20,000 bases of DNA. Source: an uncultured virus (IMG/VR IMGVR_UViG_3300035516_000278) (lineage: Duplodnaviria; Heunggongvirae; Uroviricota; Caudoviricetes). The translations under genes were made by a program, and so were the position numbers. Under the pieces are notes generated by a model. That model worked only from the letters and a program-made list of their open reading frames with translations. It was not told the DNA's origin and searched no databases. The DNA lies in IMG/VR virus record IMGVR_UViG_3300035516_000278. One strand, given 5' to 3'. This document shows positions 331 to 19,600 of this stretch, piece by piece (the stretch's first letter is position 1; every line of letters begins with the position of its first letter).

Positions 331-354
331 CCTAAATTAAGGTAAAGCCTAATG

Positions 355-384
355 AGGAGGGCTTATTACAAGCTCTCCTTTTTT
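355..384 (+). terminator. Rho-independent terminator-like hairpin
   Basis: AGGAGGGCTT-attac-AAGCTCTCCT stem (one G.U pair) running into a T tract. Confidence 0.65.
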
Positions 385-396
385 ATTATATATACT

Positions 397-972
397 ATGA
401 CAGTAATACTTGATGCTGGACACGGAGTTGAAACTCCAGGCAAAAGATCTCCTGATGAGACTTTAAGAGAATATAAATACTGCAGAGAAATTGCTTAGAA
501 GGTAAAAGATATTCTTACTTCTAAGGGAATTAAGGTAGTATTTATTATGGAAAATATTGATGAAGATGTCGCTCTATCTAAAAGATGTAAGACCGTTAAT
601 CAGATTTGTAAAACCGATAATTGTATTTTGGTGTCGATACACTGTGATGCTTATGGTTCTGATGGCAAATGGCATACAGCTTCTGGATGGAGCGCACGTG
701 TTTCTCTTAATGCCTCCTCCAAAAGTAAAGAACTTGCAGGATATTTATTTGATTCTGCTAAATCTCATAATCTTAAAACAAGACAATACAGACCTACTGA
801 AAAGTATTGGCAATAGAACTTAGCAATTTGTAGAGATACAAACTGCCCAGCTGTTTTGACTGAGAATTTGTTTCAAGATAATGAAGAAGATGTAAAGTTC
901 TTACTAGCACATAAAGATGAAATCGCTGATTTACATGTTCAAGGTATTCTTGAATATATAAAGAATCATTGA
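397..972 (+). CDS. N-acetylmuramoyl-L-alanine amidase (Amidase_3 family, probable endolysin), 191 aa with TAG read-through
   Basis: ATG 397, MTVILDAGHG..TPGKRSPD..REY, SIH, CPAVLTENLFQDN: the full Zn-amidase motif set lies in one frame interrupted only by TAG at 496 and 814. Ends TGA 970-972. Confidence 0.9.
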
Positions 973-1006
973 GATACTTATAATATAAATGTAAATATGG
1001 ACTAAT

Positions 1007-2062
1007 ATGGCTGAAGTGTTAAATTAGGATCCTGTTGAATACAATTTCGACACAGAGGAGGATCCTTCTGTAGATGAGGTAATTGATGATAATGGAGATG
1101 ACAATCAACCTACTCCTCCTATTAACAATTTACCTCCGAATAATGATGTTCCTGAGCCTCCTGCTCCTCCGGTTTTAGATGAAACTGTAGCAGCTCTTTT
1201 GAAGGCACAAGGAATTTCTGACCCTAGTAGAATTATTTTTGAAGACACAAACGGTAACCATCAAGAAATTGCTTGGAATAACCTTACATTACAAGAGCGT
1301 ATGAATATGCTCCGCGGAGAAGACCCTGAAGTTGGTCTTTCTGCGGATGAAATTAATATGCTTAATGAAATGCGTCAAAGCAATATGACTTCTGAATAGT
1401 TTAAGAATTACTATAAACAAGCAGGAGCCAGAGAATATGCAAATAATAAAGAGCCTGAATATAACTTATCAGTTAATCAGCTTACAGATGATGAATTATT
1501 TATTTTAGATTTGCAATCCAAAGTAGAAGATTTAACTGACGAAGAGGCTCTTGCAGCACTTGATACAGCAAAACAGAATGAAGCATTGTATGCACGTCAG
1601 GTTGAAGGGTTAAGAAGAGATTACCAAGCTAAGGAAGAGAGAATGAATCAAGAAGAAGCCTATGCTCAGCAACAAGAAAAAGCTCAACAGTTTGGTGAAT
1701 TTAAAAATTCCGTCCTTAATAGTATCCAGAGTTTAAATAGCATTGGAGACATTGGTATTAACCTTGATAATGATGATAAAGAAAATCTTGCTTCATTTAT
1801 TTTAGATACAGACGATACTGGTGTAAGCTACCTAGGTAAAGCATTAAACGACCCGCAGTTGTTAGTGCAGCTTGCGTGGTTTGCTTTACATGGTGCAGAT
1901 ACATTTAATAGTATTTCAGATTATATGGCTGAGGAAATTAAGCGTGTTGGTCAAAGTAATTATGATAAGGGTTACAGAGATGGACAGAATCGTCAGCCAA
2001 GTTCAAGAGTTGTTTATTAGCAACCACAACGAGATGTAAATTCTTACTTAGATTTAATCTAA
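1007..2062 (+). CDS. Acidic, helical protein upstream of MCP (putative scaffold/capsid assembly protein), 351 aa
   Basis: ATG 1007. Joins track ORFs 1199 and 1511 in one frame through TAGs at 1025, 1397 and 2018. Ends TAA 2060-2062. D/E/P-rich N-terminus and a coiled-coil-like middle. Function inferred from position. Confidence 0.7.
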
Positions 2063-2084
2063 CTAGAAAATAAAATGATTTAAT

Positions 2085-2642
2085 ATGATTGTAGCACAAA
2101 TGACGAACTTACGTCCTACGATGAGCGAAACGAGGACGTATGAAGATTTTTATAAGGTCATTGGTACAAAGCCCCACATGCTCGGTGTTTTGTCTCGTAT
2201 GAATCCTGACCTTACTACCAACTTTATTACTGAAGGTTTACGTAACGTATTCTATAACGATAATAAGAAGTCTAACCGTTTCCAGTCAATTGACTCCATG
2301 TATTTCGATTGGGAAATTGAATCTAATCAGATTAAGAAGATTCAGTTTGCTGAAGTACCCACCGAGGTTGGTACTGATGGTACCGAAATTACTATGAAGT
2401 TTACTGAGCGCTGGTATGAGAAATATGATATTTTCAAGATTGACAAAACTCGTCAGCAGTGTATCGTAGTTTCTCGTCCTATCCGTCGTGCAGATAACTG
2501 CTGGGAAGTACAGGTTCGTTTGGTAGATAACAACTACGATACGGAGCTTGATCTCGAAGGCTGCCAGATTGGTGATACTACTACATTCCAGTCTAATGCA
2601 GTTCCTGAAATGTCAGAGGAAGGCTACGTTAAGTATCAGAGT
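2085..2642 (+). CDS. Major capsid protein, exon 1 of 4 (join 2085..2642, 3935..4192, 5549..6101, 7360..7415; 1425 nt, 474 aa)
   Basis: MIVAQMTNLRPTMSETRTYEDF...PEMSEEGYVKYQS. Strongly biased codons. Ends in U at the P1 wobble and joins in frame to NIEKHRGY. Size and position fit a crAss-like MCP. Confidence 0.85.
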
Positions 2643-3934
2643 AAACAAATATTGCTCCTTGTCATTGTGAGATGACTCGAAGAAGCTTTTTAATTGCTGG
2701 AAACTTACAATAATTTGTAACAATCAGCAGCGAAGATTGAGATTGTGCAAACATTTTTATGGAGCACTCAATAACGTTCAACGACTATCCCGCAAGGGAG
2801 TACACCTAAAGGTGGAAATGGAAGCTAACTTTATGAAATATATAATATATTAGACGCTCAATACAATCAATAACAAAATCTATGTCGGAGTACATAAAAC
2901 TAAAGATCCAGAAGTTTTTGATGGATATATAGGATGTGGTATTAGAATAAATATGCCAAGTTCCTATAATAATCCGTCAACTCCTTTACAATTTGCAGTA
3001 AATAAATATGGAACTAAAGCCTTTAAGAGATCAACTCTTTATATATTTGATACTCCAGAAGAGGCTTATGCAGAAGAAGCGAGATTGGTAAATAAAGACT
3101 TTATCCGCAGAACTGATACCTATAATGCTAAATTAGGTGGTTATGGAAGAAATAGTTGGTTTACAAAAGTTTATCAATTCACTTTAGATGGTACATTTGT
3201 AAAGATGTGGGATTCACTTATAGAGGCTTCCGATTTTTACGGAGTATCTCATACTGCAATTTTACAAGCTGCTAAATTCAAAGGAAGTTGTAAACGATTC
3301 TTTTGGTCTTATGTTGAAAATCCTGATTTATCTAAATACACTAGTAGTGTAGGAACTATTTGCTATCAATATGATTCTGATGGTCATTATTGCAATACTT
3401 ACAATTCTTATTTTGAAGCAATGCAAGATAATGACATTTCAGAACAATCCTTATCAAGGGCAATTAAAGGAGGATATAATCTTAAAGGATTTTATTACAG
3501 TACTAAACTCTTAGAAGAATATAATGGAAAACCTAAAGTATCTTTAAAAGGCAAATCCATTTATGTATATTCTTTAGATGGAGAATTTATTACTGAACTT
3601 AAAAACTCTACAGAGATTTATGAGTTCTTCAATATTAAAACAACTCATGCAATTACTACAGCATTGAGAACAGAACGACCATATAAGCAATATCAAATAT
3701 CTTTAGAGCATGTGCTACAAATGCCTAAAGTTATAAACAAAAGAAACATCAGCAAGCCTGTTGAGTGTTATGATTTATATGGTAATTTGATTGAAGAATT
3801 TAAAAGCATTACTGAAGCTGTGAAGAAATATGGAACTGGAGTTCAGAAAGTTCTAAAAGGGCAGCAACAAGTATGCAAAGAACATATATTTCAGTATAAA
3901 AGTTAATGATATAGTCTACATTTTTAAAAATGTG
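2643..3934 (+). mobile_element. Group I self-splicing intron 1 in MCP (IA-like), 1292 nt
   Basis: P1 GAGU/GCUC with U.G. Core elements AATTGCTGGAAA (2692), AATCAGCAG (2722), GTTCAACGACTA (2776), GATATAGTCT (3908). Extra P7.1/P7.2 hairpins TCCC-GCAA-GGGA and CACC-TAAA-GGTG. Terminal G 3934. Confidence 0.92.
2833..3906 (+). CDS. Intron-encoded GIY-YIG homing endonuclease with NUMOD1-like repeats (HEG1), 357 aa
   Basis: True start is ATG 2833: MKYIIY(TAG)TLNTINNKIYVGVHKTKDPEVFDGYIGCG, in frame with track ORF 2953. Repeats VYQFTLDG, YQYDSDG, VYSLDG, CYDLYG. Confidence 0.88.
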
Positions 3935-4192
3935 AATATTGAGAAGCATAGAGGTTACATTAATACCTTCCGTGTTGATGATTCTTACTCTTCTCTTTAC
4001 AAGATCCATGAGCAGAAGTTTATTTCAATTGCAGAAGGTAAAGATCAGGGTAGCTTAAAAGAGACTATCTATAAGATGGATACCGTTGAAAAGAACCTCT
4101 TGGATAACTTCCAGTTCGTAAAGAATCAGGGACTTCTTTTGAACAAGTCAAATATTGATCCTAAGACAGGAAAACCGACGATATGTGACCCT
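3935..4192 (+). CDS. Major capsid protein, exon 2
   Basis: NIEKHRGYINTFRVDDSYS...KPTICDP, 258 nt, in phase with exons 1 and 3. Confidence 0.85.
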
Positions 4193-5548
4193 AAACTCCA
4201 GTATTGGGGTCAAGCAGCTTAACATAAGTTGCAAAAAGCAAAATCTACTGAATTGCTGGAAATCTAAACGGATAATGCCGTAGACAATCAGCAGCCAAGA
4301 CTATACATAGGCAGGCTCGTATGAGTAGCGTATAGTAAGGTTCAACGACTAGCCGCAGGGCGTACACACTTTATGTGTGGAAGTGGTAGATTCTTATTTT
4401 AAAATGTTAAAATATATTTGAATATGATTTATATTGTATATTGTACTACCAATATTCTTAATAAGAAGATTTATATTGGTGTTCATAAGTGTGAGTCTAA
4501 TAAGTTTGATGGTTATATTGGCTGTGGTGTTTATGTAAATAAACCTAGTACCTATAATAAACCTAAAACAACTTTTCAGTTTGCAGTACAAAAGTATGGG
4601 CCTAGCAACTTTAAACGTATTGTTATTAAAGAATACGATAATTTAGAGGATGCTTATAATTTAGAGGCGGAACTTGTAAATAAAGAATTTCTTCAAAGAA
4701 AGGATGTTTATAATGAAATTCTTGGAGGAAATGTGGGCGATACTACAACAGCAGTACCTTGTTCACAGTATGATTTAAATGGTAAATATCTTAGAAGTTT
4801 TGATTCTCAACAAGACGCTGCTAGATATGTTGGCAGAGGTTTTTCAACAATCAAACATGCCATTAAAAATCATGTAAAATCTGCTGATAGTTATTGGGCA
4901 CTTGAAAAAGTTGATACTTTAGACTTAACTAATTACAAAACTACTGATAATAGAGTTCCAGTATTTCAATACTCTATAAATGGCGAATATGATTGCTGTT
5001 ATGAATCTGTTGCTGATGCAGCGAGAGTAAATAATGAAGCTACTTCTAATATCTCTAGAAGTTGTAAACTAGGATTTAGATGTGGTGATAAATATTTTTC
5101 TTATGAATTTCAGCCCACATATTCAATAGCCAGAAATGAGCAAATAAAGAATCAAAAGGTTTATCAATATTCTTTAGATGGACAGTTTATAAAGGAATAT
5201 GATTCTTATTTAGTTGCTCAAAGAGAATTGGGAAAACATGGTTTAGGAACTGCTATTAAACTTGGAAGACTATTCGCTGATTTTCAGTGGAAATTAGAAA
5301 AGTTTGATTCAATAGCACCTGTAAAAAGTATACATAATAAAGCAAGAGCAGTAGGACAGTATGATTTAGATGGAAATTTAATTAAAACATATCGTACTGT
5401 TACAGATTGTGGAAAAGATTTTCCAGGAAGTTTACAAGTTTTGCGAGGCAAATATAAAACTTCTGGAGGATTCGTATTTAAATATATAGAATAAGAAAAG
5501 ATATAGTCTAATCCTTAAGAAATTAAGGTAATTTTTAATCGGACAATG
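4193..5548 (+). mobile_element. Group I self-splicing intron 2 in MCP, 1356 nt
   Basis: P1 TGACCCT/GGGGTCA with U.G. P10 CCAGTAT pairs with 3' exon ATACTGG. Core AATTGCTGGAAA (4251), AATCAGCAG (4286), GTTCAACGACTA (4340), GATATAGTCTA (5500). Terminal G 5548. Confidence 0.93.
4424..5494 (+). CDS. Intron-encoded GIY-YIG homing endonuclease with NUMOD1-like repeats (HEG2), 356 aa
   Basis: MIYIVYCTTNILNKKIYIGVHK...DGYIGCG...AYNLEAELV...YN. Four repeats QYDLNG, QYSING, QYSLDG, QYDLDG. ATG 4424 preferred over TTG 4418. Confidence 0.9.
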   Translation: MIYIVYCTTNILNKKIYIGVHKCESNKFDGYIGCGVYVNKPSTYNKPKTTFQFAVQKYGPSNFKRIVIKEYDNLEDAYNLEAELVNKEFLQRKDVYNEILGGNVGDTTTAVPCSQYDLNGKYLRSFDSQQDAARYVGRGFSTIKHAIKNHVKSADSYWALEKVDTLDLTNYKTTDNRVPVFQYSINGEYDCCYESVADAARVNNEATSNISRSCKLGFRCGDKYFSYEFQPTYSIARNEQIKNQKVYQYSLDGQFIKEYDSYLVAQRELGKHGLGTAIKLGRLFADFQWKLEKFDSIAPVKSIHNKARAVGQYDLDGNLIKTYRTVTDCGKDFPGSLQVLRGKYKTSGGFVFKYIE

Positions 5549-6101
5549 GATACTGGTCGTCCGATTTACATTTCCGATGGATTTATTCCTCAGGTCGAAA
5601 GATTTGCATCCAAGTTTGCTGCTTCTCGCATTGATGTAGAGACATTCAACACAATCATCTCTACTATGTGTGACAAGGCAGAGAAGGCCACTGGTAATAA
5701 GTTTGTATTTATTGTAAACGACCGTGCTTGGCATCTCGTACAGCAGTCACTTGGTGGCTATCTCGCTAACTTTAAGGTTGATGCTACCTACCTCTGGTCT
5801 AAGTAGGCTAACGGTTACGTTAAGGTAGGTGCAACTTTCGACACTTATGAGTATGGTGGCAACTAGATTTCATTCAAGGTTGATAGAGCACTTACTCGTG
5901 AGTTCGGTAGTGAGAAAGCCTACATGATTTGTGTCGATTTGACCGCAGATGCAGCTTCTAATACTCCTGCAGTAGCATCCTTCGCTTTGAAGGGCAAAGA
6001 TTTCATCTACAACAAGATTCTTGGTGTTGGTGGTCTTGATGGTATGTCCTCTGGAATTGTTTCTTCGCCTGTAGCAGGCTCCAAACTCTCAATCCATGGA
6101 T
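5549..6101 (+). CDS. Major capsid protein, exon 3 (two in-frame TAG)
   Basis: DTGRPIYISDGFIPQVERFA...LWSK(TAG 5804)ANGYVKVGATFDTYEYGGN(TAG 5864)ISFKVDRAL...SPVAGSKLSIHG plus one T. Confidence 0.85.
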
Positions 6102-7359
6102 TAATTCTTCGCATAGTCCATGTAAAACTTTTTAAATTGCTGGAAAGCCGTGTAGGTAATCAGCAGCCAAGCCGTAAAATAAGAGCCTGATAAGGACAGT
6201 TTTACGGAAGGTTCAACGACTAGTGCTAATGCACGTAAATTAATTTTGAAAAAGAAAGTGACCTAACGTATGAAATACATTGTATATCAAGTTACAAATA
6301 AAGAAAATGGAAAACTATATATAGGAGTCCATAAAACTGAAAATCCCGATGTGTTTGACGGGTATATTGGAAATGGCATTTGTGTTGGATATTCTTTAGA
6401 AAATCCTAAAACAGCATATCAACATGCTTTAAAAAAATATGGCTATAAAGCTTTTGTAAGAACTACATTAAAGGTCTTTGATAAGCTTGAAGATGCTTTA
6501 AGTTATGAAGCATTTTTAGTTACACCAGAATTTGTAAAGCAAGACAATAATTATAATACAGCTGTTGGTGGAGGTTATGCAATTATATATAAAACAATAT
6601 ATCAATTTAATAACAGAAAAGAACTAGTAAGAACCTGGGAAGGAAATCCTTCTGTAGCAGAGTTCTATGGAATATCAAAACAAGTTGTTAATTATGCCAT
6701 TTTACATAAAAAAATAATTCTTGATTCTTATTTTAGTTATGATGAATCTCCAATATTTGAAGAATTTACAACTTATAGAAATGAGTTATTTGAATTTTCT
6801 GATACTGGTGATTTATTAAATACTTATAAAAGTACAAGAGATGCAGCAGAAAAGACTGGTTATAATTTAAAAAGCATTGAAGCTGCTGCAACAGAAAAGA
6901 AAATTTATAAAAATCATTATTGGACTAGAAATCCTGATGATATTTATAATATAATTAAAATCAACCATTTATATAAACTAACTTACAAGCCTGTAATTCT
7001 TTATAATGATAAGAAAGAGGTTATTAAAGAATATAGGAACATGAGAGAAGCTGCTGCTGAGTTAAATCTTAGTTATGATACTATTAAGCAAGGAGCTAGA
7101 CTTGGAAGGTTAGTAAATGGAATGTATTATTTCTCTTATACTAATGTAGTTACTAAAGCTACTAAAATAGGACAATATGAAAATGGAGAACTTGTTAAAG
7201 TTTGGGATACGGTAGCACAATGTGCTAAAGTTCATCCTAAGTGTAGAGAAGTTCTAAAAGGACAGAGAAATCAAACACATGGATATACATTTAAGTATTT
7301 AGAAGAAGATTAGGTTAATGATATAGTCTAATCCTATATGAAAATATAGGTATCAAATG
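6102..7359 (+). mobile_element. Group I self-splicing intron 3 in MCP, 1258 nt
   Basis: P1 CATGGAT/GTCCATG with U.G. P10 GCAT pairs with 3' exon ATGC. Core AATTGCTGGAAA (6136), AATCAGCAG (6158), GTTCAACGACTA (6211), GATATAGTCTA (7320). P9 CCTATAT-gaaa-ATATAGG. Terminal G 7359. Confidence 0.93.
6270..7331 (+). CDS. Intron-encoded GIY-YIG homing endonuclease with NUMOD1-like repeats (HEG3). 347 aa if TAG 7311 stops, 353 aa if read through to TAA 7329-7331.
   Basis: MKYIVYQVTNKENGKLYIGVHKTENPDVFDGYIGNG...YEAFLV...NYN. C-terminal IGQYENGELVKVWDTV...GYTFKY. Confidence 0.88.
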
Positions 7360-7415
7360 ATGCAGGAATTGCAGTGTTTAATCCCTATAGATCCTTCATT
7401 CTCAGAGAAATTTGA
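7360..7415 (+). CDS. Major capsid protein, exon 4 (C-terminus)
   Basis: Split codon T|AT gives ...SIHG-Y-AGIAVFNPYRSFILREI*, TGA 7413-7415 followed by a second TGA. Confidence 0.85.
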
Positions 7416-7437
7416 TGAATTAAGGCTTACAGATAAT

Positions 7438-7470
7438 GCACAGGAGGCTTTCCCCTCCTGTGCTTACTTT
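7438..7470 (+). terminator. Terminator-like hairpin after the MCP gene
   Basis: Perfect 10-bp stem GCACAGGAGG / CCTCCTGTGC followed by TTACTTT. Confidence 0.7.
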
Positions 7471-7496
7471 CAATATAAAATGTAAAATGAATTAAT

Positions 7497-8324
7497 ATGA
7501 CTACAGAGGAACAGTTGCAATCAAAGACAATTATTTTAAGAAGTGTCTTTGGCAAAGTTGGTCAGAAATATTATATCAATCCTTGCAAGGATCCTAAAAC
7601 TAATCGTTTTCCCGAATGTGTTAAACGTGTAAATTCTCAGGGGGATATGATACTTACTGACGCTGAAAGAAATAGCGGTAAATATTTTGTAAAAGAATCA
7701 GAAACATTTATTGTTACTGATGGTACAACTTATGATTTATCAAATGAAGTTGATAGAGCACAGTGGGAAGCAATTCGCTTCTGCCCATTTATTGCTATGA
7801 GTAGAGATGAACGAGATAGTTCAGGTAATCTTAAAATTGATGGCAATGCTAAGCGTTATGGCGTTGCCGAACTTTATGTAGAGATTCCTGGTGAAGAATC
7901 TAACAAGCGTGTATCTAAGAGAGAAATGGTACATAGAGCTGAATCTTATATCTTTGATGATCCGAAGGGTGCTGATGGTCGTCGTATTGCTGCTAAGTTA
8001 CTTGGCCGTATTATGAACAATGCTCCTGATGCAGATGTTAAGGAATGGCTTCTTAACATTGCCTCTAAAGAGCCTCAGAAGATTATTGAAGTTTATACTG
8101 GTTCTGATACTGCTCTCAGAATTTTGTTTATTGATGCTCGACAGAAGAATGTAATTTATCAGAAGAATAAGTTATTCTTATATGCTGATAATATTGTTCT
8201 CGGTGCAACTGACGATGCAGTCATTACTTGGATGAAAACTTCCAAAAATTCAAAAGTCCTTGAACTTATTAAAAAGGATACATATCCTGAGTTATTTGGC
8301 ATTAAGGACGAAGATAAAGAATAA
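7497..8324 (+). CDS. Hypothetical protein directly downstream of MCP (capsid-module gene), 275 aa
   Basis: Intact track ORF, no TAG, ends TAA. Function unknown. Confidence 0.8.
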   Translation: MTTEEQLQSKTIILRSVFGKVGQKYYINPCKDPKTNRFPECVKRVNSQGDMILTDAERNSGKYFVKESETFIVTDGTTYDLSNEVDRAQWEAIRFCPFIAMSRDERDSSGNLKIDGNAKRYGVAELYVEIPGEESNKRVSKREMVHRAESYIFDDPKGADGRRIAAKLLGRIMNNAPDADVKEWLLNIASKEPQKIIEVYTGSDTALRILFIDARQKNVIYQKNKLFLYADNIVLGATDDAVITWMKTSKNSKVLELIKKDTYPELFGIKDEDKE

Positions 8325-8348
8325 TAGAATTTTTAAAACTATACAACT

Positions 8349-9668
8349 ATCACAGCTCGATAGGTTTATGAGGGTGTTCTGGTTGAATTAAATAAGGACC
8401 AAGCCCCCAGTTTGATTTTAGAGGAGTTTAATTACCTTTTCAATAAAGCTATTAACTAGTATATAAACAAGAGTTATAATGTATATGATGTTAATTAGCA
8501 GTATACTGATAATCTGAGGGTGTTAAAAGCAACTGCCGTTCTTACTCCTAAATTATCCGATCTTTATGGAGATACACATAAAGGAGTAAATGCAAGAAAT
8601 TCATTATATAATGCAACCTATGAAGTATTGCTTCCTCCGGATTATCTACACATTTTAAATTGTATTTGTAACTTTGAAGTTAAGAAACAATTTAAATGCT
8701 ATGATAAGGATACATATGTATAGTTTCCAGCCACACGATTAACTGCGGATGCTTGGTCTTAGGTTATGTAGAATTTCTATATGAAACCTTCATACAAGCG
8801 TCCTTATTATTACTTACATAATACAAACACTTATTCTGAGAATGTTCAATCTCCTAGAATATCCACTAATCCTTATGAATATGATGAGGAGTTTGGAACA
8901 TATAGAGGAACTGATGTTGGTTTAAAAACCACATTAACTGCTTTGTTTGAACAATATAAGAGTTTGAATGCGGATAAATTTACATTTGATCTTGTTACTA
9001 CTAGTCAAGGTATAAAAACTTGGGTAGCAACTGATAAGAATAATGCAACTGAGTATTTTGTAATTTATGATGCTTCAAACAAAAGATTTATTCTTGCAGA
9101 AAGTGCTCAAGTTGAAATTTCTATAACAAACGGAGTTGTAAATGTTTATACTCCACTAGAGAGTGTTTATGTAGGTGATACTACATTATATATAAATACT
9201 ACAGGAGCTACACTTGGAGATTTAAATCAACAATATAATCTTGTAAGTGAAGATTTTCTTGATAACTATGGTAATGCTGTAGTTTAGACTGATGCTCCTA
9301 GAGAAATTCAACTTGGAAATGGTGAGTATTTAAGTACTGTAGAAAAGACTGCAGGCTATCGTTATGGTAATTTATCCAATGTACGCTGCGAAATCCGTTA
9401 TGGAAAAGACAACAGTGTCTTTGCCCTTACTGATGTGTACATTGACTATATAAAAGCTCCTCAATTTATAAGACTTACACAGGAACAATTAGATTTGACA
9501 GAGGACACATCATAGATGATGGAATTTCCTGATTATGTATGTCAAGAGATAATAAATGAGTTGGTACACTTAGTTATGGAGAATGCTTCTGATCAGCGTC
9601 TTCAAACACATCCCGTAGTTACTTAGTCTATTGCTAATCCAGCTCAACAGTAGACGCAATCAACCTAA
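8349..9668 (+). CDS. Putative virion ring/neck protein, about 439 aa, apparent ATC start
   Basis: One frame open from after TAA 8334-8336 to TAA 9666-9668, with 10 TAGs (8361, 8457, 8496, 8721, 8760, 8769, 9285, 9513, 9624, 9651). Includes track ORFs 8520 and 8781. Motifs LPPDYLHILN, IDYIKAPQ, EFPDYVCQEII. Function from synteny only. Confidence 0.7.
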
Positions 9669-9679
9669 TAATTTAAATT

Positions 9680-10666
9680 ATGTATCAGTACACTAGCACA
9701 ACTATTGTTAATTCCGCTGATGTAATTTTCAGTAAGAAAGTAAGTGATGAGAAGTCACTTTTCCGTGTTAAATTTGGTCCCGAACTTATTGTTGAAGACG
9801 ATAAGTCTAAAATTACTGCTGTTTACAAGAACTCTTATTCTGAAGGTAAACCCGCTACTGCAGTTATTGATCTTGGTAATGAAGCAATTAATACTGACGG
9901 TACAGGTATTTATCGTGTGGCTATTTACGTTCGTCTTTCTCCTCATAGCAATGAGGCTAACTACTCTAATGTATGGGTATTTAAAGGCAAGCCTGTTTAT
10001 ATTGAGTTTGATGTAAATAAGGCTAAGGAAGGAAAACTTGCTGAGTATGCTGCTCGTATTGCTAAAAAGTTCCAGCTTGCTACTTATGGCAACGATATTC
10101 TTGAGATTACTGGCGAAGGTAATACACTTACCATTAAGGGTAAAGATCAGTATCAGCAATTCTTGACACAGGATAGTCTTCCTGGCATTAATGTTCAGAA
10201 GCTTTCTGAAGCTAAATATGCTACTCCTGAGCGTTTTGAAGACGTAATTGATTGGGAGTATGACGAGAATGCAAAGAAATATACTAACGAACTTGTTACT
10301 ACTTTTGAGCAGGGAGTTGAAGGCTTTGGTGATTACGATCACATGCTTCGCTCTTATGTATATCCCACTGCTCAGAATACTCGCTGGAATGGTATCCATG
10401 AGGATGAGCGTCCTCTTGTAAATGGCAAGTACACTCAGTACACTGTTTACTTCCAGGCAGAACGTGGTATTATGGGTCTTGGTGCAGTTGGTATGCTTGC
10501 TAATTCTAAGACTACTCATGTATTCATGGTTGAGGAAGGTGCAACTGCTAAGTTCGAGGAAGAGCTTGCTAAAGTTCTCAACGGTGTAACAATCGAGGAT
10601 GTTACTCCTGGTCAGGCTGAAGCTGCTAGCACTCCTGCAACTGCAAGCGTAGATGCTGAGGATTGA
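9680..10666 (+). CDS. Probably abundant structural protein (possible auxiliary capsid/decoration protein), 328 aa
   Basis: Intact ORF with no TAG and MCP-like biased codons (cgt, ggt, act, cag, aag). Ala-rich tail, followed by a terminator. Confidence 0.7.
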   Translation: MYQYTSTTIVNSADVIFSKKVSDEKSLFRVKFGPELIVEDDKSKITAVYKNSYSEGKPATAVIDLGNEAINTDGTGIYRVAIYVRLSPHSNEANYSNVWVFKGKPVYIEFDVNKAKEGKLAEYAARIAKKFQLATYGNDILEITGEGNTLTIKGKDQYQQFLTQDSLPGINVQKLSEAKYATPERFEDVIDWEYDENAKKYTNELVTTFEQGVEGFGDYDHMLRSYVYPTAQNTRWNGIHEDERPLVNGKYTQYTVYFQAERGIMGLGAVGMLANSKTTHVFMVEEGATAKFEEELAKVLNGVTIEDVTPGQAEAASTPATASVDAED

Positions 10667-10678
10667 TAATCATTAATT

Positions 10679-10716
10679 GAGGCGGTGGCAATTAAGCCTC
10701 CGCCTTTATTTGTTTT
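10679..10716 (+). terminator. Terminator-like hairpin
   Basis: GAGGCGG-t-GGC-aattaa-GCC-t-CCGCCTT followed by TATTTGTTTT. Confidence 0.65.
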
Positions 10717-10718
10717 AT

Positions 10719-11390
10719 ATGTACAGTAAACTAGCTTCAGCAATATATAACCATTTAGTAACTGGTTTACGTGGTTATCATTAGAATCCTACAATAAGCA
10801 TTGAACAAATTGAAGATGAAATTGTAGAAACTAGATTATAGATTATTAAAGAATATCTAGCTAAGAACTTACTTCCTAGAGAAGAGTTATTAACTACAAT
10901 AAATTGTGTTACTGTAGACTGTTAGGATTTAGAAAGATGCTGCAGTGTAAAATCTGAAAATGGAACTCCTGTAGCTCATTTTGAAATCCCTTAGCTAGTA
11001 CACGATTTCGGTACAGGATCTATTGCTTATGTAGGTTCTCCCGACAGACAAAATCCATTCATTGTTTATATAAATTCAAACTTTAAGAATACTCTATAGA
11101 AATATAGAAGAAGAGGCAAGGATAAACCTTACGTAATGATTGATCCAGCACCTAATGCTGACGGATTTTGTGATTGTTATATTTTCAATGCTCCATATAT
11201 AAAGAAAGTGTCTGTAGTAGGCTTATTTAAAGATTTAAGATAGTTGGAGGAATTAACTTGTTGTGTTGATTCTTCTGAAATTTCTACAGGACTTGATGCA
11301 GAAATTAAAGATCGAATGATTAAGAAATTAATGTCTTATTATAGAGCTTATCCTACATAGACTAAACCTAATACACAAGAATATACCTAA
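10719..11390 (+). CDS. Putative ring/tail protein, 223 aa (absent from the ORF track)
   Basis: ATG 10719 MYSKLASAIYNHLVTGLRGYH... with 7 in-frame TAG and no TAA/TGA until 11388-11390, which overlaps the next ATG (TAATG). Confidence 0.75.
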
Positions 11391-12079
11391 TGCAAGATTT
11401 TCACGCACCAATGTTTCAGGCCAATCTTTTATATGGTCTTAATTTAGATGAAGATACTTATGAAGAACTTGCATTAAATGCTTGGGGATTAATAGGTAAT
11501 AAACACTATAGATTGTACAAAATAAGTGCAATTATAGATAAAGATACACTATCAGTTGAATTACCTTGTAATGCTTCTACAGTTGAAGCTGTAACAGCTG
11601 ATGGTGAAGATTGGAGTTATACTTCCAATATTCATGATCATGGTGATATATATACTAAATTTACAGAAGAATATATAGAACTTATGAAGCATGATAAAAA
11701 TTCATTCTATTTAAGTGGACATTATGTAGACTTCAATTAGCAGGGAAATACTTTATATTTTCCCCATAACTATGGAAAGGTAAATATTCTTTATAAAGGT
11801 TATCAGGTAGATGAAAATGGTTTACCTGAATTAACTGATAAGGAAGTAATTGCAATTGCTACATATTGTGCTTTCTATGATAAGTATAAAATGGCCTTAA
11901 TGACTAATAATACTGTATCAATGAACTTTGCTAACAATCTTAAATAGGAATGGTACAGACAATGCGATGCAGCAAGAGTTCCAGAACATATTACACAAAA
12001 TGAAATGGATCGAATTTTAGATGCCAAAGTTTCTTGGAACCGTAAAGTATATAATAAGTCTTTTAAACCAATAATGTAA
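11390..12079 (+). CDS. Putative tail tubular/ring protein, 229 aa
   Basis: Track ORF extended through TAG 11738 and 11945. Contains VNILYKGYQVDENGLPEL. Ends TAA 12077-12079 with another TAATG overlap. Confidence 0.75.
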
Positions 12080-13089
12080 TGTTTGCCCTTGGTTGTGCAT
12101 TTTCATTAAACGAAATATTTGCAAACTTTAATTGCAAGAAGTTAAAGTTTTCATGTAAAGAATCAGTAGATTATTTTTAGGATGCACACCGAGACAGAGT
12201 TAGTGCTAGAATATTTAGAGATTGTTTGTAGATGGTATTTGAAGATATGGTTGAAAATAGTATTACATTTAAACTTCCTACAGGCTCAAGACCCTCTTGT
12301 ATGTATATACGTAAAGTAGAAGGACAACTTTTTAAAGAAGCAAGATAGAATGGAAGATTTGCTGATATTGATTTTATTGCTTCTAATTTTGCAGCATTTG
12401 AGCCAGTGTTATAGATGGGAAATACAATGACTTGCAGAATTAAACATATTTACTTTGATAAAGCACTTAAAGAGAAACTCATTAAGTACACTAATGAAGG
12501 TAGATAGTATTATGAAACATAGGAGAAAACAGTAAAAGACTATTATGATGCTATATATGATAAATATCCTGACTTATGTCATGCAGACATAAACCGTATT
12601 TTGAATTACGGATTTAAATCTCTATATTTGCATAATAGCTATGGTGCTGACGTTTAGATTGATTCTGGAGATTTTTGGTGCTATTTTGGAGAATTACGAC
12701 GTGATCCTATCAAACACTTTAAATATTATGTAAAAAAACTTGCAATAAAACTCAGAATCCTTCATAAACGTAAACATATTGAATGGGATGGTTATTATTA
12801 TTTTGCATTATCTTAGAATGAATACGATTAGCTTCAAATAAAACACAGAGGACGTCCTAGGAAACGATTTGTTTTCTAGAACGTCGCTCTGTTCAGAATG
12901 TTTGATGAATGTAATCTTAGAAATTCTGGAAAGCAATATATATTCCGAGTTAAGTTATCTTTTGATCTTGGAAGTTATATTGTAGTAAGACGTAGATATG
13001 AAACTACTAATGCAGAACTAATACTACATAGAGAACCATTAAAGTTCAAAGATATTCTAGTATCAACTAATAAATATGAATGTTTATGA
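12079..13089 (+). CDS. Hypothetical basic protein, 336 aa (possibly two domains; position resembles the IHF-like genes of crAss-like tail modules)
   Basis: ATG 12079, 10 in-frame TAG, no other stop until TGA 13087-13089 (ATGA overlap with the next gene). Includes track ORF 12898. Confidence 0.7.
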
Positions 13090-16000
13090 ATACTAAAAAT
13101 GAAGCTTCTAATGGATTTACAGGAGGCCTACAAATGGACTTACATCCATTATTGACTCCTAATAGTTCATTAACTGATTGTTTAAATGGCACTACCATTA
13201 CCATGAATGGTAATGAAAATATGTTATAGAATGACATGGGTAATGGTAGAGTTGAAACTGCATATCTCCCTTCTGGTTATGTACCTGTAGGAATGAAAGA
13301 ACATGGCGGAATTGTCTATGTAGCATCTTACAATCCACAAACTAAGAAAGGTTAGTTAGGTTCATTTCCTTCACCTGAAAGAAATATATCTAGTGAGGAA
13401 ATGAATGAAATTGAAGGAAACACCATTGGAGAACTTGTTGAAGGACAAGTTGTCTATAAATATAAAATATTTCCAGAAGATTTAATTATTCGTTCTGGTG
13501 ATGATTTTGCAATCTTCCTTAAAAATTTAAGTATAGAAGATGCAAAGACTATGTTTTCACATTGTTATAATGTGGATGAAAATGGTTATTCAGCTAAAAA
13601 GAATAAACTATTTACAGTGTCAGTTTGTATATAGGATTCTGATAATAATTTACGTGATATAACTAGTTCTTTAAAAAGGTTTATTCAAGAAACTGACGAT
13701 AATGGTGACACTACTTCAAAATAGGTCGAAGGAACTGAAAATGGATTCTATCTTTTATTTGGAGATAGTGCTGGTATTGTTAATTCTATAAAGAATCCTG
13801 ACGATGCTTAGGCTGTAAATGAATTTAAAGCTTATAATAAATATAACAATAAGTTATTTGGAACTCTTTACTTAGTTTTATCTGTAAACTATTTTGATTC
13901 TTTTGAATTACAAATAGATACATTTATTACAGATAATGACAATTTTACTGTAAAGTTTACACCTATATATACATATAATAGTCCTAATGGATGTAATGAA
14001 AGTACTGGATTTGTTTGTTCAGATAAAGAGGGAACTATTACACAAGTAATTAATGGTACAATATTTAAAATATCACCAGGTTTAAACTGGGATAACTACT
14101 CTAATTATATATATAATGGAGATAGCTCGTATAAATTATTGCCTTTTATCTCGGAAGATTTTGAAGATAAATCTTCGTATGTATAGACTTGTGATTCTTT
14201 AATATTTACGGGGAATAAAGCTAATTACACTTCATTAACTTATACATTCATTCCAACTCTTAATTTTAATATAAAGGAATTAAGTGGATATGCTAAAACA
14301 GGAACTATTGATGTAACTAAAATAAATAGTGGATATAAAAATTTAACAGAGTTTAGGTATTTCTATGAGGAGGGATTTATTACTGTAAAGTATGGATTTG
14401 AATGCTATTTTAAATCCTATGAATAGGGAACCTCTGTTGAATTTGAATTTTATGACATTAATACATATACAAGTAGCAAACTAAAACCTGACCTTACTTT
14501 AAATTTTTAGAAATACTCTTATAATGGATCTTTTGAATTTACTACATCCACCTTAACACAAGGACACATGTATGCAGTAAAAGTTAAGTTAAATTATAGA
14601 GAGCGAGGTGAACTAAAGAACGATTAGGTTTATTGGAGATTCATTTTAACTACTCCTTATTTTAATAAATATTACTTCAGTATACGTGATTTTATAGATA
14701 TTAAAGATTATAACATTACTCCTACCTTATATGTTTCAAGTTACAATGTACAATCTACTAATGTTACTTATAAACATAACAATTAGGAAGTAACTCCTTC
14801 GGATTTAATAGTCAATTCAGACAATGAGGATACTTACGTTTTAACCAAAGAATAGACTTCTATTATAAACATTAATGAGGTTAAAATATCTGTTCCAGAA
14901 AATTTGCCTTTTAATAGTAGTGATTTCAATATCTATGAACATTCTAAATAGGCTAGTGTAAAACAGACTTAGAATTGTTCATGCTCTGAATATAAAAAAT
15001 CTGATATAACTAGTAATTATACATTAACTACATAGAATGTTAATACATTAATAGGAGATCGTAAGATTCCCGTAGTGTAGTTCGATAATTTTTTTTGTAT
15101 TGGAGAAAATTCGTTTCCTAATTCTACACCTGAAATTATCTGGAAATCAGAGCTCTATAACGAAGCTTTATCAATAGGATAGAATTATTATATATATGAA
15201 GGATCTTTAAGTACAGATTTGGGTAGTGCCGGTATTTATTTTTATGGATCTTCCAAAACTACTATAGATTGGGGGAATAGTGAAACCACCCTTAACAATC
15301 TTACTTCTGGAATTTATCATGATGATGAAAATGCAGCAAATATTGCAATACATGATTCTATTTATGATATTTATTATGATCCTATAAGTGAAGACGAAAA
15401 ATAGTATCAGCCATATTATTATGAAAACTATGTAAATAATGATGCAATAGATTTTACTGCTGGAGGAAAGTTTGATTATTATGTTCCTGATGGGGGTATA
15501 AATGATAAAAAGTGGAATTAGCTATTTGAAACTACAGAGAGACCTGTACGTCTTTTAAATTTTGAAAAATGTGTAAATAATACTTCTAATTTGCCAGGAA
15601 ACACTCGATTTTTGTTTGTTTGTGCCTATATGAAGTATAGTAATTACACATGGGATGATAAAGCAAAAAAGGATTTTTTTAAAGAGTTAGGTTCATTTAT
15701 TGATTGTTATACTTTAATGAAAGGCCAGAATAATAAATACTATGGATTGGGTAAACCGTTTAGATGGTATCGTCCAAATAAAATTAAAGGAAATAAAGAG
15801 GCTGATGCTAATATACCATTTGGGTGTTATATAAACCATATAATGCAATTCTTTTCTGATTCATGTATAGGTAATTTTGGCGGATAGCAATCTACTAAAC
15901 AAATCAATTATCCTCATACTTTTGATTTTAATGAAATTACTCAAGAAGCTCCTTCTATGACAGCATCTTATGAGACTAAGGATTATTTTTCAAAGCTTGA

Positions 16001-16655
16001 AAAATTTTTAGAGCCTTTACCCATTAGTTCTGATGATGACTTATATAAAATATTACATTTTGGAATTAATTCTGGCAAAAATGACGATGTTAGCTTAAAT
16101 ATAAATGTAAATATTCCTTTTTCTAATTTAAATTCTCTTTAGTTAATTAACTCACTCCAAGAAGAAAAAGTTGATGTATTAGGGGAAATAAATGGAGAAT
16201 ATTATTTAGCTGATTCTGCTGGAAATGTATTGGATGCCTAGAAAGTGTATTCATTACAGAATGGAATGCTACATGAAAATTCTTAGTTAGCTGTATATGA
16301 AGATTATTTTATTCCTTCTAATAATATAACCAAAGCATTACATCCTGTATTAACTTATTATGATAGTTACTGGGATGAAGGAAATGCTAATCGAGACTTA
16401 CATTCTGTATATTTAAGACATAGAGATATGGACTATCTTAATGGAGACAGAAGAGATAAAAATGATCCAATATACAATACAGATGATGGAAAAGTTAATT
16501 ATGAGTCTGAAAGTATAGTTTCTGCGGGAGGAGAACCAAAGCGCATTCTTACAGATGATTATGCTTTTGGATATATGAATCTTGAAGGTATGCCTTATAT
16601 AGATATTACTAATTATTATAATGAAAAGGATACTCCTGTATGGGGAAGTTTTTAA
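13086..16655 (+). CDS. Large putative tail/virion protein, 1189 aa
   Basis: ATG 13086. N-terminus F.GGL.MDLHP..TPN..LTDCLNGT..T.NGNE..L(TAG)NDMGN...GYVPVG.KEHGGI.YV.SYNP...G(TAG)LGSFPSP. Track ORFs 13401, 15219, 15591, 15957 and 16428 share this frame. About 22 TAGs by manual count, no TAA/TGA until 16653-16655. Confidence 0.78.
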
Positions 16656-19600
16656 CTGATATATTAAGTGGAGTTTCAATTTCATATTATGCTAAAGTAT
16701 AGCCTACAGAAGGCAATTTAGTATATGAATATAACCCTCTACGAAATTACCGACTATCTTCAGATTAGGTTATAGATGATACCGAATATGAAGCAGGAAG
16801 TATAATAGACTTAGATACTGAAAATTTACAATTTGATTTAGAACATCCAGTAACTATTGATTGTCAGGATTCTTACGATGGGTCAGTAAATTTAATATTT
16901 AATGATTATAAGAATGAGCCTAAGTTAATAAATACTAGATTTGCTCCTTTACAAAATAATCAATACGAGATTGTAGACCATATTGGAAATAATGACACTA
17001 ATCTTTATGATGAAGATTAGTTTGGCTCTGATACTGGTTTATATAAAAAGTCATCTACAATTGCTTATATTGATTTTGTATCTCTATTAAATACAGGAAA
17101 CTTAAAAGTAGGTAATTACAATGTATATCTTACATATTGTGATGCCGATGGAAATGAAACTGATTTTATTGCAGAGTCTGGTATAATTTCTTGTTTTATA
17201 GGAGAAAATTGTGATCCTTTTTCTATAAATGGTGGATATAAAGATTAGAATAGCAACAAAGGAATAATCATTACTGTAAATAATGTTGATTAGAATTATG
17301 ACTATATAAAGGTTTATTATAGTAGAAATACTTCTGATGCGGATCTCTCTAATACAAAGTCTTATTATAAAATAGATAGAAAATACCCAATTAGAGGAAC
17401 ATCAGTAACTTTAACAATTACTGGATTTGAAGAAGTTGAAGAAGTAACTGCAGAAACTATAAATGCCTAGTATTTTATTGCTACTAAAGCTAAAGCATAG
17501 GCTACTTGTTAGAGTAGATTATTCCTTGCAAATTTACAAACTAATCAACTAGATTATTCTGATTTCACTGATTTAAGTTTACATATAGTGCCTCAATTAG
17601 TTACTAATAAGAGGACTGATTTAATAGGCAATGTAGATTCTAATTATGAGGATTCTACTGGAAAGTTTGAATACTATAATGTTGAAAACATTTATTATCG
17701 AGTTGGTTATTGGAATGAGGAATTTTATAGGTTTGGAATTGTTTATATATTAAAAGATGGAAGTTTATCTAATGTATTTAATATTTGTGGTACATCTTCT
17801 TTAACTACAGAATTGCCTTCTAATATAAAAAACCTCTATCAAATCTTAGATGTAAATAAATCAAGACAATACTTAGAAATACTGGATAATAAATTAGTTG
17901 GATATAATTATAACTCTAAAGGAGTAATACGATTTAATGGTACTAATGATGATTATATTTATTCTATTAAATTTAATATACCTTCTTAGGTAATTGAATA
18001 TTTAAAGGATAAAGTTTCTGGATTTTTCTTTGTAAGATAGAAACGTATCCCTACAATATTAGCTCAAGCAGTTCTATTTCCTGTAGACCAAGAATCAAAC
18101 CTTCCTACATTATATTTTTAGGATTCAGAAACATATAAATATTGTATAGAGAGTTTTTTATCTCCCAATAAGAGATATTTGGGAACTTCTTATATTACAA
18201 GACTTCAAGAAATAAACGAATCTTATATATTAGGATCTGGATTTGCTGCAATATGCCCTGAATTTGAAACTAATTAGGCATATTATAATACTATTTTCAC
18301 AGGAGGTTCTTTTATAGTTTCTCCTTATGTTACTAATACTATTACTAGAAGTAGTTATTATGATTACTGTTATAATGTAGAATCTTCAGACAATTATAAT
18401 TCATCAAGTACAGTAAGTACTGCCTATATTGCAGCTTTGCCAGATAGTACACCTTTAGTTGTTCTTAAAGATAAAAAATTTAGAGGAGTAGCTGGAGAAG
18501 CAGAAACTGCATATAAATTTAGATATATAGGTAAAGAGAATAAAGACACTGAAGCTGATAATTTAGTTAGAGGTGTATATTCTCCTTATTTGGCAGTAGT
18601 TAATTCTCAATGTTCTGTAGGAGATACTATAAATATTAGAGTTCCTAATTATTCTGTATTTAAACTTAATGATTATATTTCTGTAAGACAAGAAGATGAT
18701 TCTCCTTATTATGCAATCACTGATAGATTTGACATTAATGATTTAAGTAGACTACAAAATGATACTGATTCTTATTCAGTATAGGCATTTAGAGGAGATT
18801 GCTATATATGTAATTTTACACATCGACTTAATCGTAATTTTCAAGACCCATCTGCACCATATAATGATATTATTGTAGAAAGAAATACTTGGAAAGACAA
18901 TTATGATTATGACGATGCAGAAAAAACTGCAAAAATAAATAGAGGTGATGTTAATGCAGTATCATTAGGAAGCTGGATTACTGTAAAAATAAGAGCTTCA
19001 ACTAACTTATCTTTACGTGCATTAGATCATTCTTATCCAACAGAAGAAGGAGCTTGCGGTAAAGCAAGAGGATTCTACCCTTTATAGGCTATGTCTACTG
19101 GAGGAGAATCTAAAATTCCTGAATCAGGAATACTTAATGCAGGGTATGGAATTACTTTAAGTGAGCGTTATAATTTTACATAGCCAGAAGTTCCATATAT
19201 AAAGAATAAGTATGAAACTAGAGTAGCTTATTCTGATGTATCAACTGGAGATGCCTTTAAAAATGGATTCCGAGTATTTAATGCTGATGATTATGAAGAT
19301 TATCCCAGTACTTATGGTGGAATTATGAAACTAGTTGATATTGGCGGTAATCTTTTATGTGTGTTTGAACACGGTATTGCATTAATTCCAGTTAATGAAC
19401 GTACTGCAGTTGGAGATAGTTCTGGAGGTTCTGTTTATATAAACACAGATAGAGTACTTCCTTCTAATCCTAGAATGTTATCTGATATGTATGGTACTCA
19501 ATGGCCAGAAAGTGTTGTAAAGACATCAAGAGCTGTTTATGGAGTTGATACTGTAGCTAAAAAAATCTGGGTAACTAATGGACAATCTGTAGAAATTATT

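Follow-up and report, generated by a model that had tools for sequence, protein, structure and literature searches.

The 20,000-nt stretch of DNA analyzed here (the window) is very probably the late structural block of a TAG-recoded crAss-like phage, in which a single major capsid protein (MCP) gene is split by three mobile group I introns. The MCP locus occupies positions 2085-7415 on the + strand (5331 nt), and 3906 nt of it (73%) is intron, which agrees with the roughly 3.9 kb of intron in a 5.3-kb locus given in a preliminary description of this DNA. The three insertions reported there, at 2643-3934, 4193-5548, and 6102-7359, were located at exactly those positions. The exons, introns, and intron-borne open reading frames (ORFs) are as follows.

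2085..2642, + strand: MCP exon 1, translated; 186 codons with C-terminal KYQS, colinear with homologues
2643..3934, + strand: predicted group I intron 1, 1292 nt; RF00028 match, P1 with U.G, P10, terminal G, P7.1/P7.2 and P8 stems
2833..3906, + strand: putative endonuclease ORF 1 in the P8 loop of intron 1; 357 aa if the TAG at 2851-2853 is read as Gln
3935..4192, + strand: MCP exon 2; 86 codons, NIEK...ICDP, colinear with homologues
4193..5548, + strand: predicted group I intron 2, 1356 nt; RF00028 match, P1, P10
4424..5494, + strand: putative endonuclease ORF 2 in the P8 loop of intron 2; 356 aa, no TAG
5549..6101, + strand: MCP exon 3; 184 codons plus 1 nt, in-frame TAG at 5804-5806 and 5864-5866
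6102..7359, + strand: predicted group I intron 3, 1258 nt; RF00028 match, 7-bp P1 with U.G, P10, terminal G; no P2 seen
6270..7313, + strand: putative endonuclease ORF 3 in the P8 loop of intron 3; 347 aa, stop codon TAG
7360..7415, + strand: MCP exon 4; AT plus 17 codons plus TGA

When joined, the exons form a frame of 474 codons plus a stop, and the codon split by intron 3 (T|AT) is restored to a Tyr that is conserved in both intron-less homologues. The 474-aa frame had been described as seamless, which is true of the junctions, where no gap opens against homologues, but not under the standard genetic code; because exon 3 contains two in-frame TAGs, the frame is seamless only with TAG read as an amino acid. 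This need for recoding had been overlooked, as had the start of ORF 1 at 2833 with its own in-frame TAG. Inteins were ruled out, as the insertions shift the frame and contain stops. No spare C-terminus for the capsid protein is encoded in intron 3, where read-through meets a stop after 30 unrelated residues. The insertion sites are not unusually conserved, with 8-aa windows falling at the 64th, 34th, and 86th percentiles of the gene.

Colinearity with intron-less homologues had been set in advance as a comparison able to overturn the split-gene reading. The spliced product was identical to uninterrupted homologue L001 at 297/473 positions (63%) and to L002 at 256/473 (54%), and both alignments were gap-free at every junction. 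The uninterrupted homologues (473/474 aa) also served as queries for the capsid profile and the fold; they scored 52.2 and 40.4 bits against PF23898 (Crassvirus capsid; cut-off, 27), and exon 1 alone matched Pfam Crass_capsid weakly (16.2 bits). Searches of PDB sequences with L001 and with profile A3 returned no capsid match, making a fold search necessary, and the three large exon pieces matched no family in PHROGs. An initial model, for which just 32 close homologues were aligned, was unusable (pLDDT 39). The AF2 model of homologue L004 (pLDDT 75.3, pTM 0.61) found the phicrAss001 capsid as its best fold match (7qof_A; E 1.2e-23, TM 0.57). Its top matches were chains 7qof/7qoi/7qoh of the phicrAss001 capsid (E 1e-23 to 2e-20, TM about 0.55); next came structures of other phage heads (capsids), HK97 included. 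Both the profile and the HK97-type fold anticipated for this protein were therefore recovered in its homologues, and together these matches support the interrupted gene as the MCP gene of a crAss-like phage.

Nine late frames carry 74 in-frame TAGs, and the genes around the locus are intact when TAG is read as Gln. Of the 43 covered TAG positions, 14 have Gln as the majority residue among homologues and 4, the next most, have Lys, and pooled homologue residues at these positions give Gln 941 vs Lys 235; recoding of the whole late block to Gln is thus the most likely reading of the alignments. No tRNA, including a suppressor tRNA(CUA), was found in the 20,000-nt window, and a source for such a tRNA is presumed. 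In line with the capsid assignment, crAss tail ring protein models were matched downstream of the capsid gene at 30.5 bits for Ring 1 (above the 27-bit cut-off) and at 21.7 for Ring 2 (below it), and a muzzle protein model at 127.8 bits, while the TerL and portal genes are absent from the window. A megablast search of the window against GenBank phages gave a sole match of 237 nt. The 140-212 kb contigs of relatives, together with code switching over short distances, are only suggestive of the Zeta or Delta group of crAss-like phages.

All three insertions were matched by the Infernal model RF00028, as the preliminary description had expected, with only intron 2 exceeding the Rfam gathering score of 50 bits. 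The matches were 4183-4479 for intron 2 (54.1 bits, E 1.9e-11), 2633-2890 for intron 1 (49.5 bits, E 4.5e-10, slightly under the gathering score), and 6125-6259 for the core of intron 3 (37.5 bits, E 1.7e-06, under it). Because an ORF of about 1 kb sits in P8, the matches are split; separate 3' pieces were found at 5389-5529 in intron 2 and at 7213-7350 in intron 3 (34.5 bits, under the gathering score), and E-values overall span 1.9e-11 to 1.3e-05. The U.G-containing P1, the P10 pairing, and the terminal G described earlier are present in every intron. P1 is closed by U.G in all three (GAGU/GCUC, GACCCU/GGGGUC, and CAUGGAU/GUCCAUG in introns 1, 2, and 3), and the splice-site U of introns 1 and 2 aligns to the conserved U of RF00028. 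P10 pairs with the 3' exon over 6, 8, and 4 positions in introns 1, 2, and 3 (AUGC/GCAU in intron 3), and every intron terminates in G (3934, 5548, and 7359). An alternative 3' site for intron 3 at 7350|7351, where the Rfam match ends, was rejected; it is in frame but adds three residues, loses the conserved Tyr, and has a weaker P10.

Similar agreement was observed in the ribozyme cores, which had been called near-identical. The P/Q/R/S-type core blocks are invariant across the three introns and two introns of relatives, as are the P7 strands. RNAalifold, run on these five introns independently of Rfam, recovered P3, P4, P5, P6, P6a, and P7.1, and 16 of 30 pairs showed compensatory changes. 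The introns also have extra P7.1/P7.2 helices, as is usual for phage introns of type IA. This anatomy, as read from sequence and covariation, supports the identification of the three insertions as group I introns.

Each intron also appears to carry its own homing endonuclease, as claimed previously, with phrog_314 (homing endonuclease) and NUMOD1 matches in all three. The phrog_314 E-values were 2.2e-18 for ORF 1 (from a start at 2953), 1.8e-28 for ORF 2, and 1e-22 for ORF 3, and the NUMOD1 scores were 41.5, 77.2, and 40.4 bits, respectively, all above the 22.8 cut-off. ORF 3 additionally matches an I-HmuI NUMOD-like domain (31.7 bits). GIY-YIG (Pfam PF01541) was matched at E <= 0.1 in two of the three, with a best score, that of ORF 3, of 20.0 bits (E 8.5e-4), under the 22.6 cut-off, and ORF 2 matched phrog_5123, which has a GIY-YIG motif, at E 1.3e-4. 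PDB sequence matches to I-TevI and I-HmuI were weak (E 0.14-0.2), and that to I-TevI (1mk0/1ln0) covered residues 1-22 only (E 0.19). The stop codon of each ORF falls within the 3' strand of P8. The TAG of endonuclease 1 aligns to a Gln of endonuclease 3; with its own TAG stop read as Gln, ORF 3 extends to the TAA at 7329-7331, and this 353-aa form is present in the database (P0159). The three products are probably endonucleases of a GIY-YIG-like/NUMOD1 type and would be expected to be active.

The distribution of insertions among relatives supports the preliminary suggestion that this gene is an intron hotspot, since other members of the family carry insertions at about ten other positions of the capsid gene. 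Among 80 IMG/VR relatives, 70 are uninterrupted, one is uninterrupted up to the contig end, eight have a single group I intron at a fourth site (aa 413/414), and one is an identical three-intron contig. The sites interrupted here are marked in divergent relatives as well. Entries P0015 and P0075 begin at junction 1, the point at which P0088 stops; P0040 and P0080 begin at junction 2, where P0121 and P0117 stop with intron-like read-through; and P0096 stops at junction 3. At junction 2, L102 contains a 495-nt homologue of intron 2 (RF00028, 71.2 bits). No RF00028 match was found in three near-complete relatives (163-212 kb), indicating that the lineage is not uniformly intron-rich.

Joined exons were observed in contigs from three RNA-labelled libraries (runs X1, X2, and X3), in which DNA may be present. 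The exact join 2642>3935 had a depth of 20.7 in X1 and 18.3 in X2, vs 20.1 in X1 and 17.9 and 9.84 in X2 for unspliced intron 1, so that the two forms are close to parity in X1 and range from parity to about 2:1 in X2. The exact join 4192>5549 had depths of 73.7 in X1 and 40.1 in X2, vs 17.7 and 8.1-10.4 for unspliced intron 2, and of 6.1 in X3, where it is flanked by 219 and 497 nt on its two sides and occurs without an unspliced intron 2 boundary. One 258-nt contig of X1 spans exactly exon 2. The exon 3-exon 4 join (6101>7360) was seen in none of four runs, an absence that is not proven since contigs drop rare forms; contigs 5549-6442 of X1 and 5723-6487 of X2 pass through the 5' splice site of this intron without a break, and X3 contains a back-join (7357>6102) that places the ends of intron 3 head to tail. 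The fourth run, X4, held a share of only 0.07 of the window, in pieces 90-99% alike. The junction-spanning molecules expected from the preliminary description are thus present as exact joins at junctions 1 and 2 and were not seen at junction 3.

The most serious alternative accepts the introns as real and reads these joins as DNA from a population polymorphic for introns 1 and 2, in which case they would say nothing about splicing. We consider this unlikely, although it deserves weight. RNA-labelled libraries may hold DNA, so the joined forms could be intron-less alleles, and the joins do not themselves demonstrate transcription. The same runs contain unspliced contigs across whole introns (2615-3964 and 4163-5578 in X1), and a 3.9-kb contig (P0156, P0164) has exons 1 and 2 fused with intron 2 kept, as expected of either an intron-1-less allele or a splicing intermediate; P0156 is a 281-aa database protein consisting of exon 1 plus exon 2 and reading on into intron 2. 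However, joined and intron-bearing forms share the same exon sequence, with 0 other letters in exons 1 and 2 and two exon 3 variants in common, and no sufficiently close allele occurs among the 79 other IMG/VR relatives, L001, and L002 (<=67% nucleotide identity). The intron-specific join ratios are also more simply explained by splicing efficiency than by repeated strain mixtures, with the reservation that the runs may come from one campaign.

Much less probable is a defective phage whose fragmented capsid gene is dead and whose introns or ribozymes have stopped working. The unseen intron 3 join, the dependence of endonuclease 1 on TAG read-through, and the occurrence of endonuclease 2 as a 253-aa C-terminal fragment on three other contigs could be taken as signs of such decay, but all exons are intact, in phase, and conserved against homologues, none of the three introns has lost its core ribozyme helices or splice-site pairings, two junctions have precisely joined forms, and the neighbouring late genes are intact with TAG read as Gln. 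A chimeric assembly that joined parts of a capsid gene to intron sequence unrelated to it, conceivable in a metagenome-type assembly from samples with related intron cores elsewhere (loose ends at 2772, 2805, and 7348), can be practically dismissed, given that an independent 6285-bp IMG/VR contig (L003) shows the same three-intron arrangement, contigs of three runs span the exon-intron borders, and the exon 1 read-through ORF is recorded on three contigs, the longest of 72,329 bp.

Under the preferred reading of an MCP gene split by mobile introns, the late transcript would fold, and guanosine would attack directly 3' of the U in each U.G pair (positions 2642, 4192, and 6101). P10 would then position the 3' exon, and ligation, which we expect to proceed by self-splicing and to include intron 3, would yield a 474-codon message to be translated with TAG as Gln. 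Intron-less capsid alleles of co-infecting relatives would be targets for the endonucleases, which would cleave them so that the introns are copied in (homing).

Known phage introns resemble this arrangement in part. The phage T4 td, nrdB, and sunY introns occur one per gene in nucleotide-metabolism genes, and their ORFs occupy the P6a and P9.1 loops. T4 introns have P7.1/P7.2-type helices, like the introns described here, and I-TevI is a GIY-YIG-type endonuclease with a modular DNA-binding tail that homes into intron-less alleles, as the endonucleases here would; in contrast to T4, all three ORFs here lie in P8 and the host gene encodes the capsid. Staphylococcus phage Twort orf142 contains three self-splicing group I introns, as predicted for the gene here, though phage, host, and gene differ.

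Closer parallels show that the novelty implied by the preliminary description was too high. Multi-intron capsid genes in crAss-like phages were described by Yutin et al. 2021 (PMC7886860) and are also covered by a 2023 review (PMC10136315); the splitting of capsid genes by group I introns is already known in these phages, and the window is an added example. In the sections of Yutin et al. on these genes, several group I introns with endonuclease ORFs interrupt the same gene in the same virus assemblage, late genes are recoded at stop codons, and the code switches at short distances. Their example MCP is in five fragments, with three of four spacers encoding intron-type domains (PMC7886860), and as presented there it lacks in-frame stops, whereas exon 3 here has two TAGs. 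Whereas endonuclease domains were the basis for recognizing introns in those sections, the present evidence consists of ribozymes, splice sites, P1/P10 pairings, and joined molecules. Jug (jumbo gut) phages, which infect Bacteroidota-type hosts in the gut, likewise have many group I introns in essential genes, whose splicing is supported by metatranscriptome reads mapping precisely to the flanks (PMC12880540). In that source, the introns are mostly about 206 nt with stand-alone endonucleases and the examples are terL, nrdD, and DNA polymerase, in contrast to the capsid gene and intron-encoded endonucleases here. A full-text literature search returned no demonstrated splicing of crAss-like capsid introns, a result that does not prove absence.

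The split capsid gene leaves the known picture of how phages work unchanged. For a phenomenon originally recognized through protein domains, it supplies precise splice sites, the anatomy of the ribozymes, and support at the level of junctions. One further reading, which we regard as doubtful, is that removal in vivo is unequal, most efficient for intron 2, less so for intron 1, and far less for intron 3 than for either, so that intron 3 splicing would limit full-length capsid protein; intron 3, 18 codons before the gene end, would then be mostly retained or released without exon ligation. If true, intron 3 would not be a neutral parasite but would act from within the gene to slow or time the assembly of heads, and any role of the three-intron gene as a timing or competition device is speculation. 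For annotation and classification of crAss-like phages, it matters that gene callers miss or fragment such capsid genes. The family as a whole appears as a patchwork of intron sites, about ten or more in number, whose alleles bear an endonuclease, retain an eroded one, or are empty. Such variety would be useful for study of the homing cycle. In this phage an essential, highly expressed gene would depend on three splicing events and a non-standard genetic code.

The capsid (MCP) locus of the window, on the plus strand from 2085 to 7415, is interrupted by three insertions (introns 1, 2, and 3 at 2643 to 3934, 4193 to 5548, and 6102 to 7359) that account for 3,906 of its 5,331 nt. The four exons are as follows.

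Exons of the capsid gene
2085 to 2642, plus strand: exon 1
3935 to 4192, plus strand: exon 2
5549 to 6101, plus strand: exon 3
7360 to 7415, plus strand: exon 4; joined, the exons give 474 codons and a stop

Uninterrupted homologues of 473 and 474 aa are encoded by two GenBank phage contigs, L001 and L002, whose capsid loci gave no Rfam intron match. The spliced product shares 297/473 and 256/473 identities with them, respectively, and aligns colinearly with zero gaps at the junctions; the split codon T|AT restores a Tyr that is also found in both. The preliminary description had claimed a seamless 474-aa frame, and its length holds, but exon 3 carries two in-frame TAG codons and the frame is therefore seamless only with recoding. 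The L001 and L002 homologues match the Pfam Crassvirus capsid family at 52.2 and 40.4 bits (cut-off 27). An AlphaFold model built on close homologues only had a pLDDT of 39, and a model of a homologue made after a profile search had brought in distant relatives reached 75.3. The latter best matched the capsid chains of phicrAss001 (7qof_A, E 1.2e-23, TM 0.57); next came head (capsid) structures of further phages, including HK97, in keeping with the capsid identity first proposed.

Each of the three insertions is matched by RF00028, the Rfam group I intron model. The matches are split because an open reading frame (ORF) of about 1 kb lies between the two P8 strands of each intron.

RF00028 matches in the capsid locus
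2633 to 2890, plus strand: intron 1 core, 49.5 bits, E 4.5e-10
4183 to 4479, plus strand: intron 2 core, 54.1 bits, E 1.9e-11
6125 to 6259, plus strand: intron 3 core, 37.5 bits, E 1.7e-06
5389 to 5529 and 7213 to 7350, plus strand: 3' pieces of introns

Directly from the sequence, P1 is closed by a U.G pair at 2642, 4192, and 6101, P10 forms 6, 8, and 4 pairs with the start of the downstream exon (introns 1, 2, and 3), and the terminal base of every intron is G. P7 is followed by P7.1 and P7.2 hairpins, and a 7-bp P8 stem flanks each ORF, whose stop codon falls within the 3' strand of P8. No variation is seen in the core blocks across the three introns and two introns of relatives. Without recourse to Rfam, RNAalifold recovered P3, P4, P5, P6, P6a, and P7.1, and 16 of the 30 pairs show compensatory changes. 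Separately, all four sequencing runs contain short contigs that match only the conserved core pieces 2772 to 2805 and 7320 to 7347, with about 36 other letters between them; these are ORF-less relatives of the window introns elsewhere in the samples, a freshwater run included.

Joined molecules were found in gut libraries labelled as RNA (X1, X2, and X3, from three studies), in which 93%, 88%, and 36% of the stretch's sampled words were present. Contigs with the join 2642>3935 occur at a depth of 20.7 in X1 and 18.3 in X2, and those with 4192>5549 at 73.7 in X1, 40.1 in X2, and 6.1 in X3, where a single 716-nt contig runs from 3974 to 4192 and then from 5549 to 6045. Unspliced paths are also present in X1 (2615 to 3964 at depth 20.1 and 4163 to 5578 at 17.7), and exon contigs stand at a depth of about 45. 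Of the three exon junctions originally predicted, two are represented; the join 6101>7360 was not seen in the run contigs, which cannot show absence, and X1 and X2 contigs are continuous over the border between exon 3 and intron 3. One X3 contig of depth 2.7 connects 7357 back to 6102, the first base of intron 3, giving a head-to-tail form of 1,256 nt, 2 nt shorter than the 1,258-nt intron and lacking its terminal G. This single weak observation may reflect excision or circularization of the intron, or else a template switch by reverse transcriptase. The joins prove the boundaries and show that precisely joined molecules exist; since RNA-labelled libraries can contain DNA, they are not strict proof that these molecules are RNA. 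A database protein of 281 aa (P0156, from a 3.9-kb contig) fuses exons 1 and 2 exactly at KYQS|NIEK and continues into intron 2; its contig derives either from an RNA assembly that captured an intermediate of splicing or from a DNA allele without intron 1, and it fits both. In a fourth run from another habitat (X4), which contains a small share of the stretch and supports no inference on habitat, pieces 2433 to 2846 (8 other letters) and 3480 to 3966 (10 other letters) span the two borders of intron 1, so a slightly different phage has intron 1 at the same site.

That each intron has its own homing endonuclease, as first described, is borne out by matches of all three ORFs to the "homing endonuclease" family phrog_314 (E between 2e-18 and 2e-28) and by NUMOD1 above its cut-off in all three. 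The GIY-YIG domain is detected weakly (20.0 bits against a cut-off of 22.6), hence the name GIY-YIG-like, and a match to I-TevI covers the first 22 residues (E 0.19). At only 31 to 35% pairwise identity, the ORFs are old paralogues rather than recent copies. The true start of ORF 1 is 2833, not 2953, and its codon 7 is TAG (2851 to 2853), opposite a Gln of ORF 3 in the alignment. ORF 3 stops at TAG (7311 to 7313), where read-through adds 6 codons up to a TAA at 7329 to 7331, and a 353-aa database entry is exactly this read-through form. With one TAG in ORF 1, a TAG stop in ORF 3, and none in ORF 2, the intron ORFs are nearly code-neutral within a recoded gene. In sister contigs, only the C-terminal 253 aa of endonuclease 2 (4424 to 5494), from codon 104 onward, are recorded (P0163; 3 contigs of up to 72 kb), and an X1 contig at 4735 to 4789 lacks 6 bases and has 8 substitutions; endonuclease 2 may be eroding in sister strains.

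Among 80 IMG/VR loci encoding relatives of the capsid protein, 70 have an uninterrupted gene, one is uninterrupted as far as the contig end, one (L003) is an identical three-intron contig, and eight have a lone insertion at residue 413/414, which is a group I intron in all four of the eight tested. A separate set of 25 metagenome loci includes 19 that are uninterrupted over the length covered and six interrupted at about residues 81/82, 173/174, 180/181, or 271/272, with Rfam matches in all four of those tested. One small contig, L102, has a 495-nt group I intron (1586 to 2075, 71.2 bits) exactly at junction 2; since it is homologous to intron 2, lies at the same site, and has lost all but a few initial codons of the endonuclease ORF, it represents an endonuclease-deleted stage of intron 2. 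Two further intron matches lie on the same contig (4 to 180 and 2247 to 2454). Fragmentary database proteins of divergent relatives begin or stop exactly at junctions 1, 2, and 3. No RF00028 match at E ≤ 1e-4 was found in three near-complete related genomes of 163 to 212 kb, so intron load is lineage-specific. Unusual conservation at the insertion sites was not found within the capsid protein.

The recoding extends well beyond the capsid gene. Late genes of the phage, all on one strand, fill the window and look fragmented under the standard code; once TAG is taken as a sense codon, they merge into long ORFs.

Other late genes of the window
352 to 972, plus strand: amidase endolysin (Pfam/PHROGs)
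10677 to 11390, plus strand: crAss tail ring protein 2 (21.7 bits, under the cut-off)
11390 to 12079, plus strand: crAss tail ring protein 1 (30.5 bits)
16640 to the window's end, plus strand: crAss muzzle protein (127.8 bits)

The ring and muzzle protein matches (Pfam, PHROGs) identify a crAss-like phage. The only megablast match of the whole window among GenBank phages is the "crAssphage sp." record MH552500, whose DNA is 80% identical over the DUF7841 gene (40 to 276). The entire late block (352 to 19999, plus strand) is TAG-recoded, with 74 in-frame TAGs across nine late frames; homologues cover 43 of the TAG positions, and the residue most of them have there is Gln at 14, followed by Lys at 4. 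The capsid-gene TAG is absent in most close relatives (e.g., L001) and present in L002 and another capsid locus, L064, and the code therefore switches at short evolutionary distance.

The observation and core interpretation of the preliminary description are correct, and a multi-intron crAss-like capsid gene is already known. Yutin et al. (2021) report that Delta-group crAss-like phages typically have group I introns in the MCP gene, that one Zeta-group MCP is broken into five fragments and has three spacers of intron type, and that late genes are recoded at TAG or TGA, switching over short distances (PMC7886860); a 2023 review restates these findings on introns and recoding (PMC10136315). Group I introns of Jug phages are described as validated by metatranscriptome (PMC12880540), and a full-text literature search found no published proof of splicing for crAss-like capsid introns. 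The window is a well-documented further example, to which our analysis makes modest additions: the exact splice-site anatomy, joined molecules for two of the introns, the interplay between introns and recoded TAG codons, and the many alternative intron sites shown by one capsid gene family.
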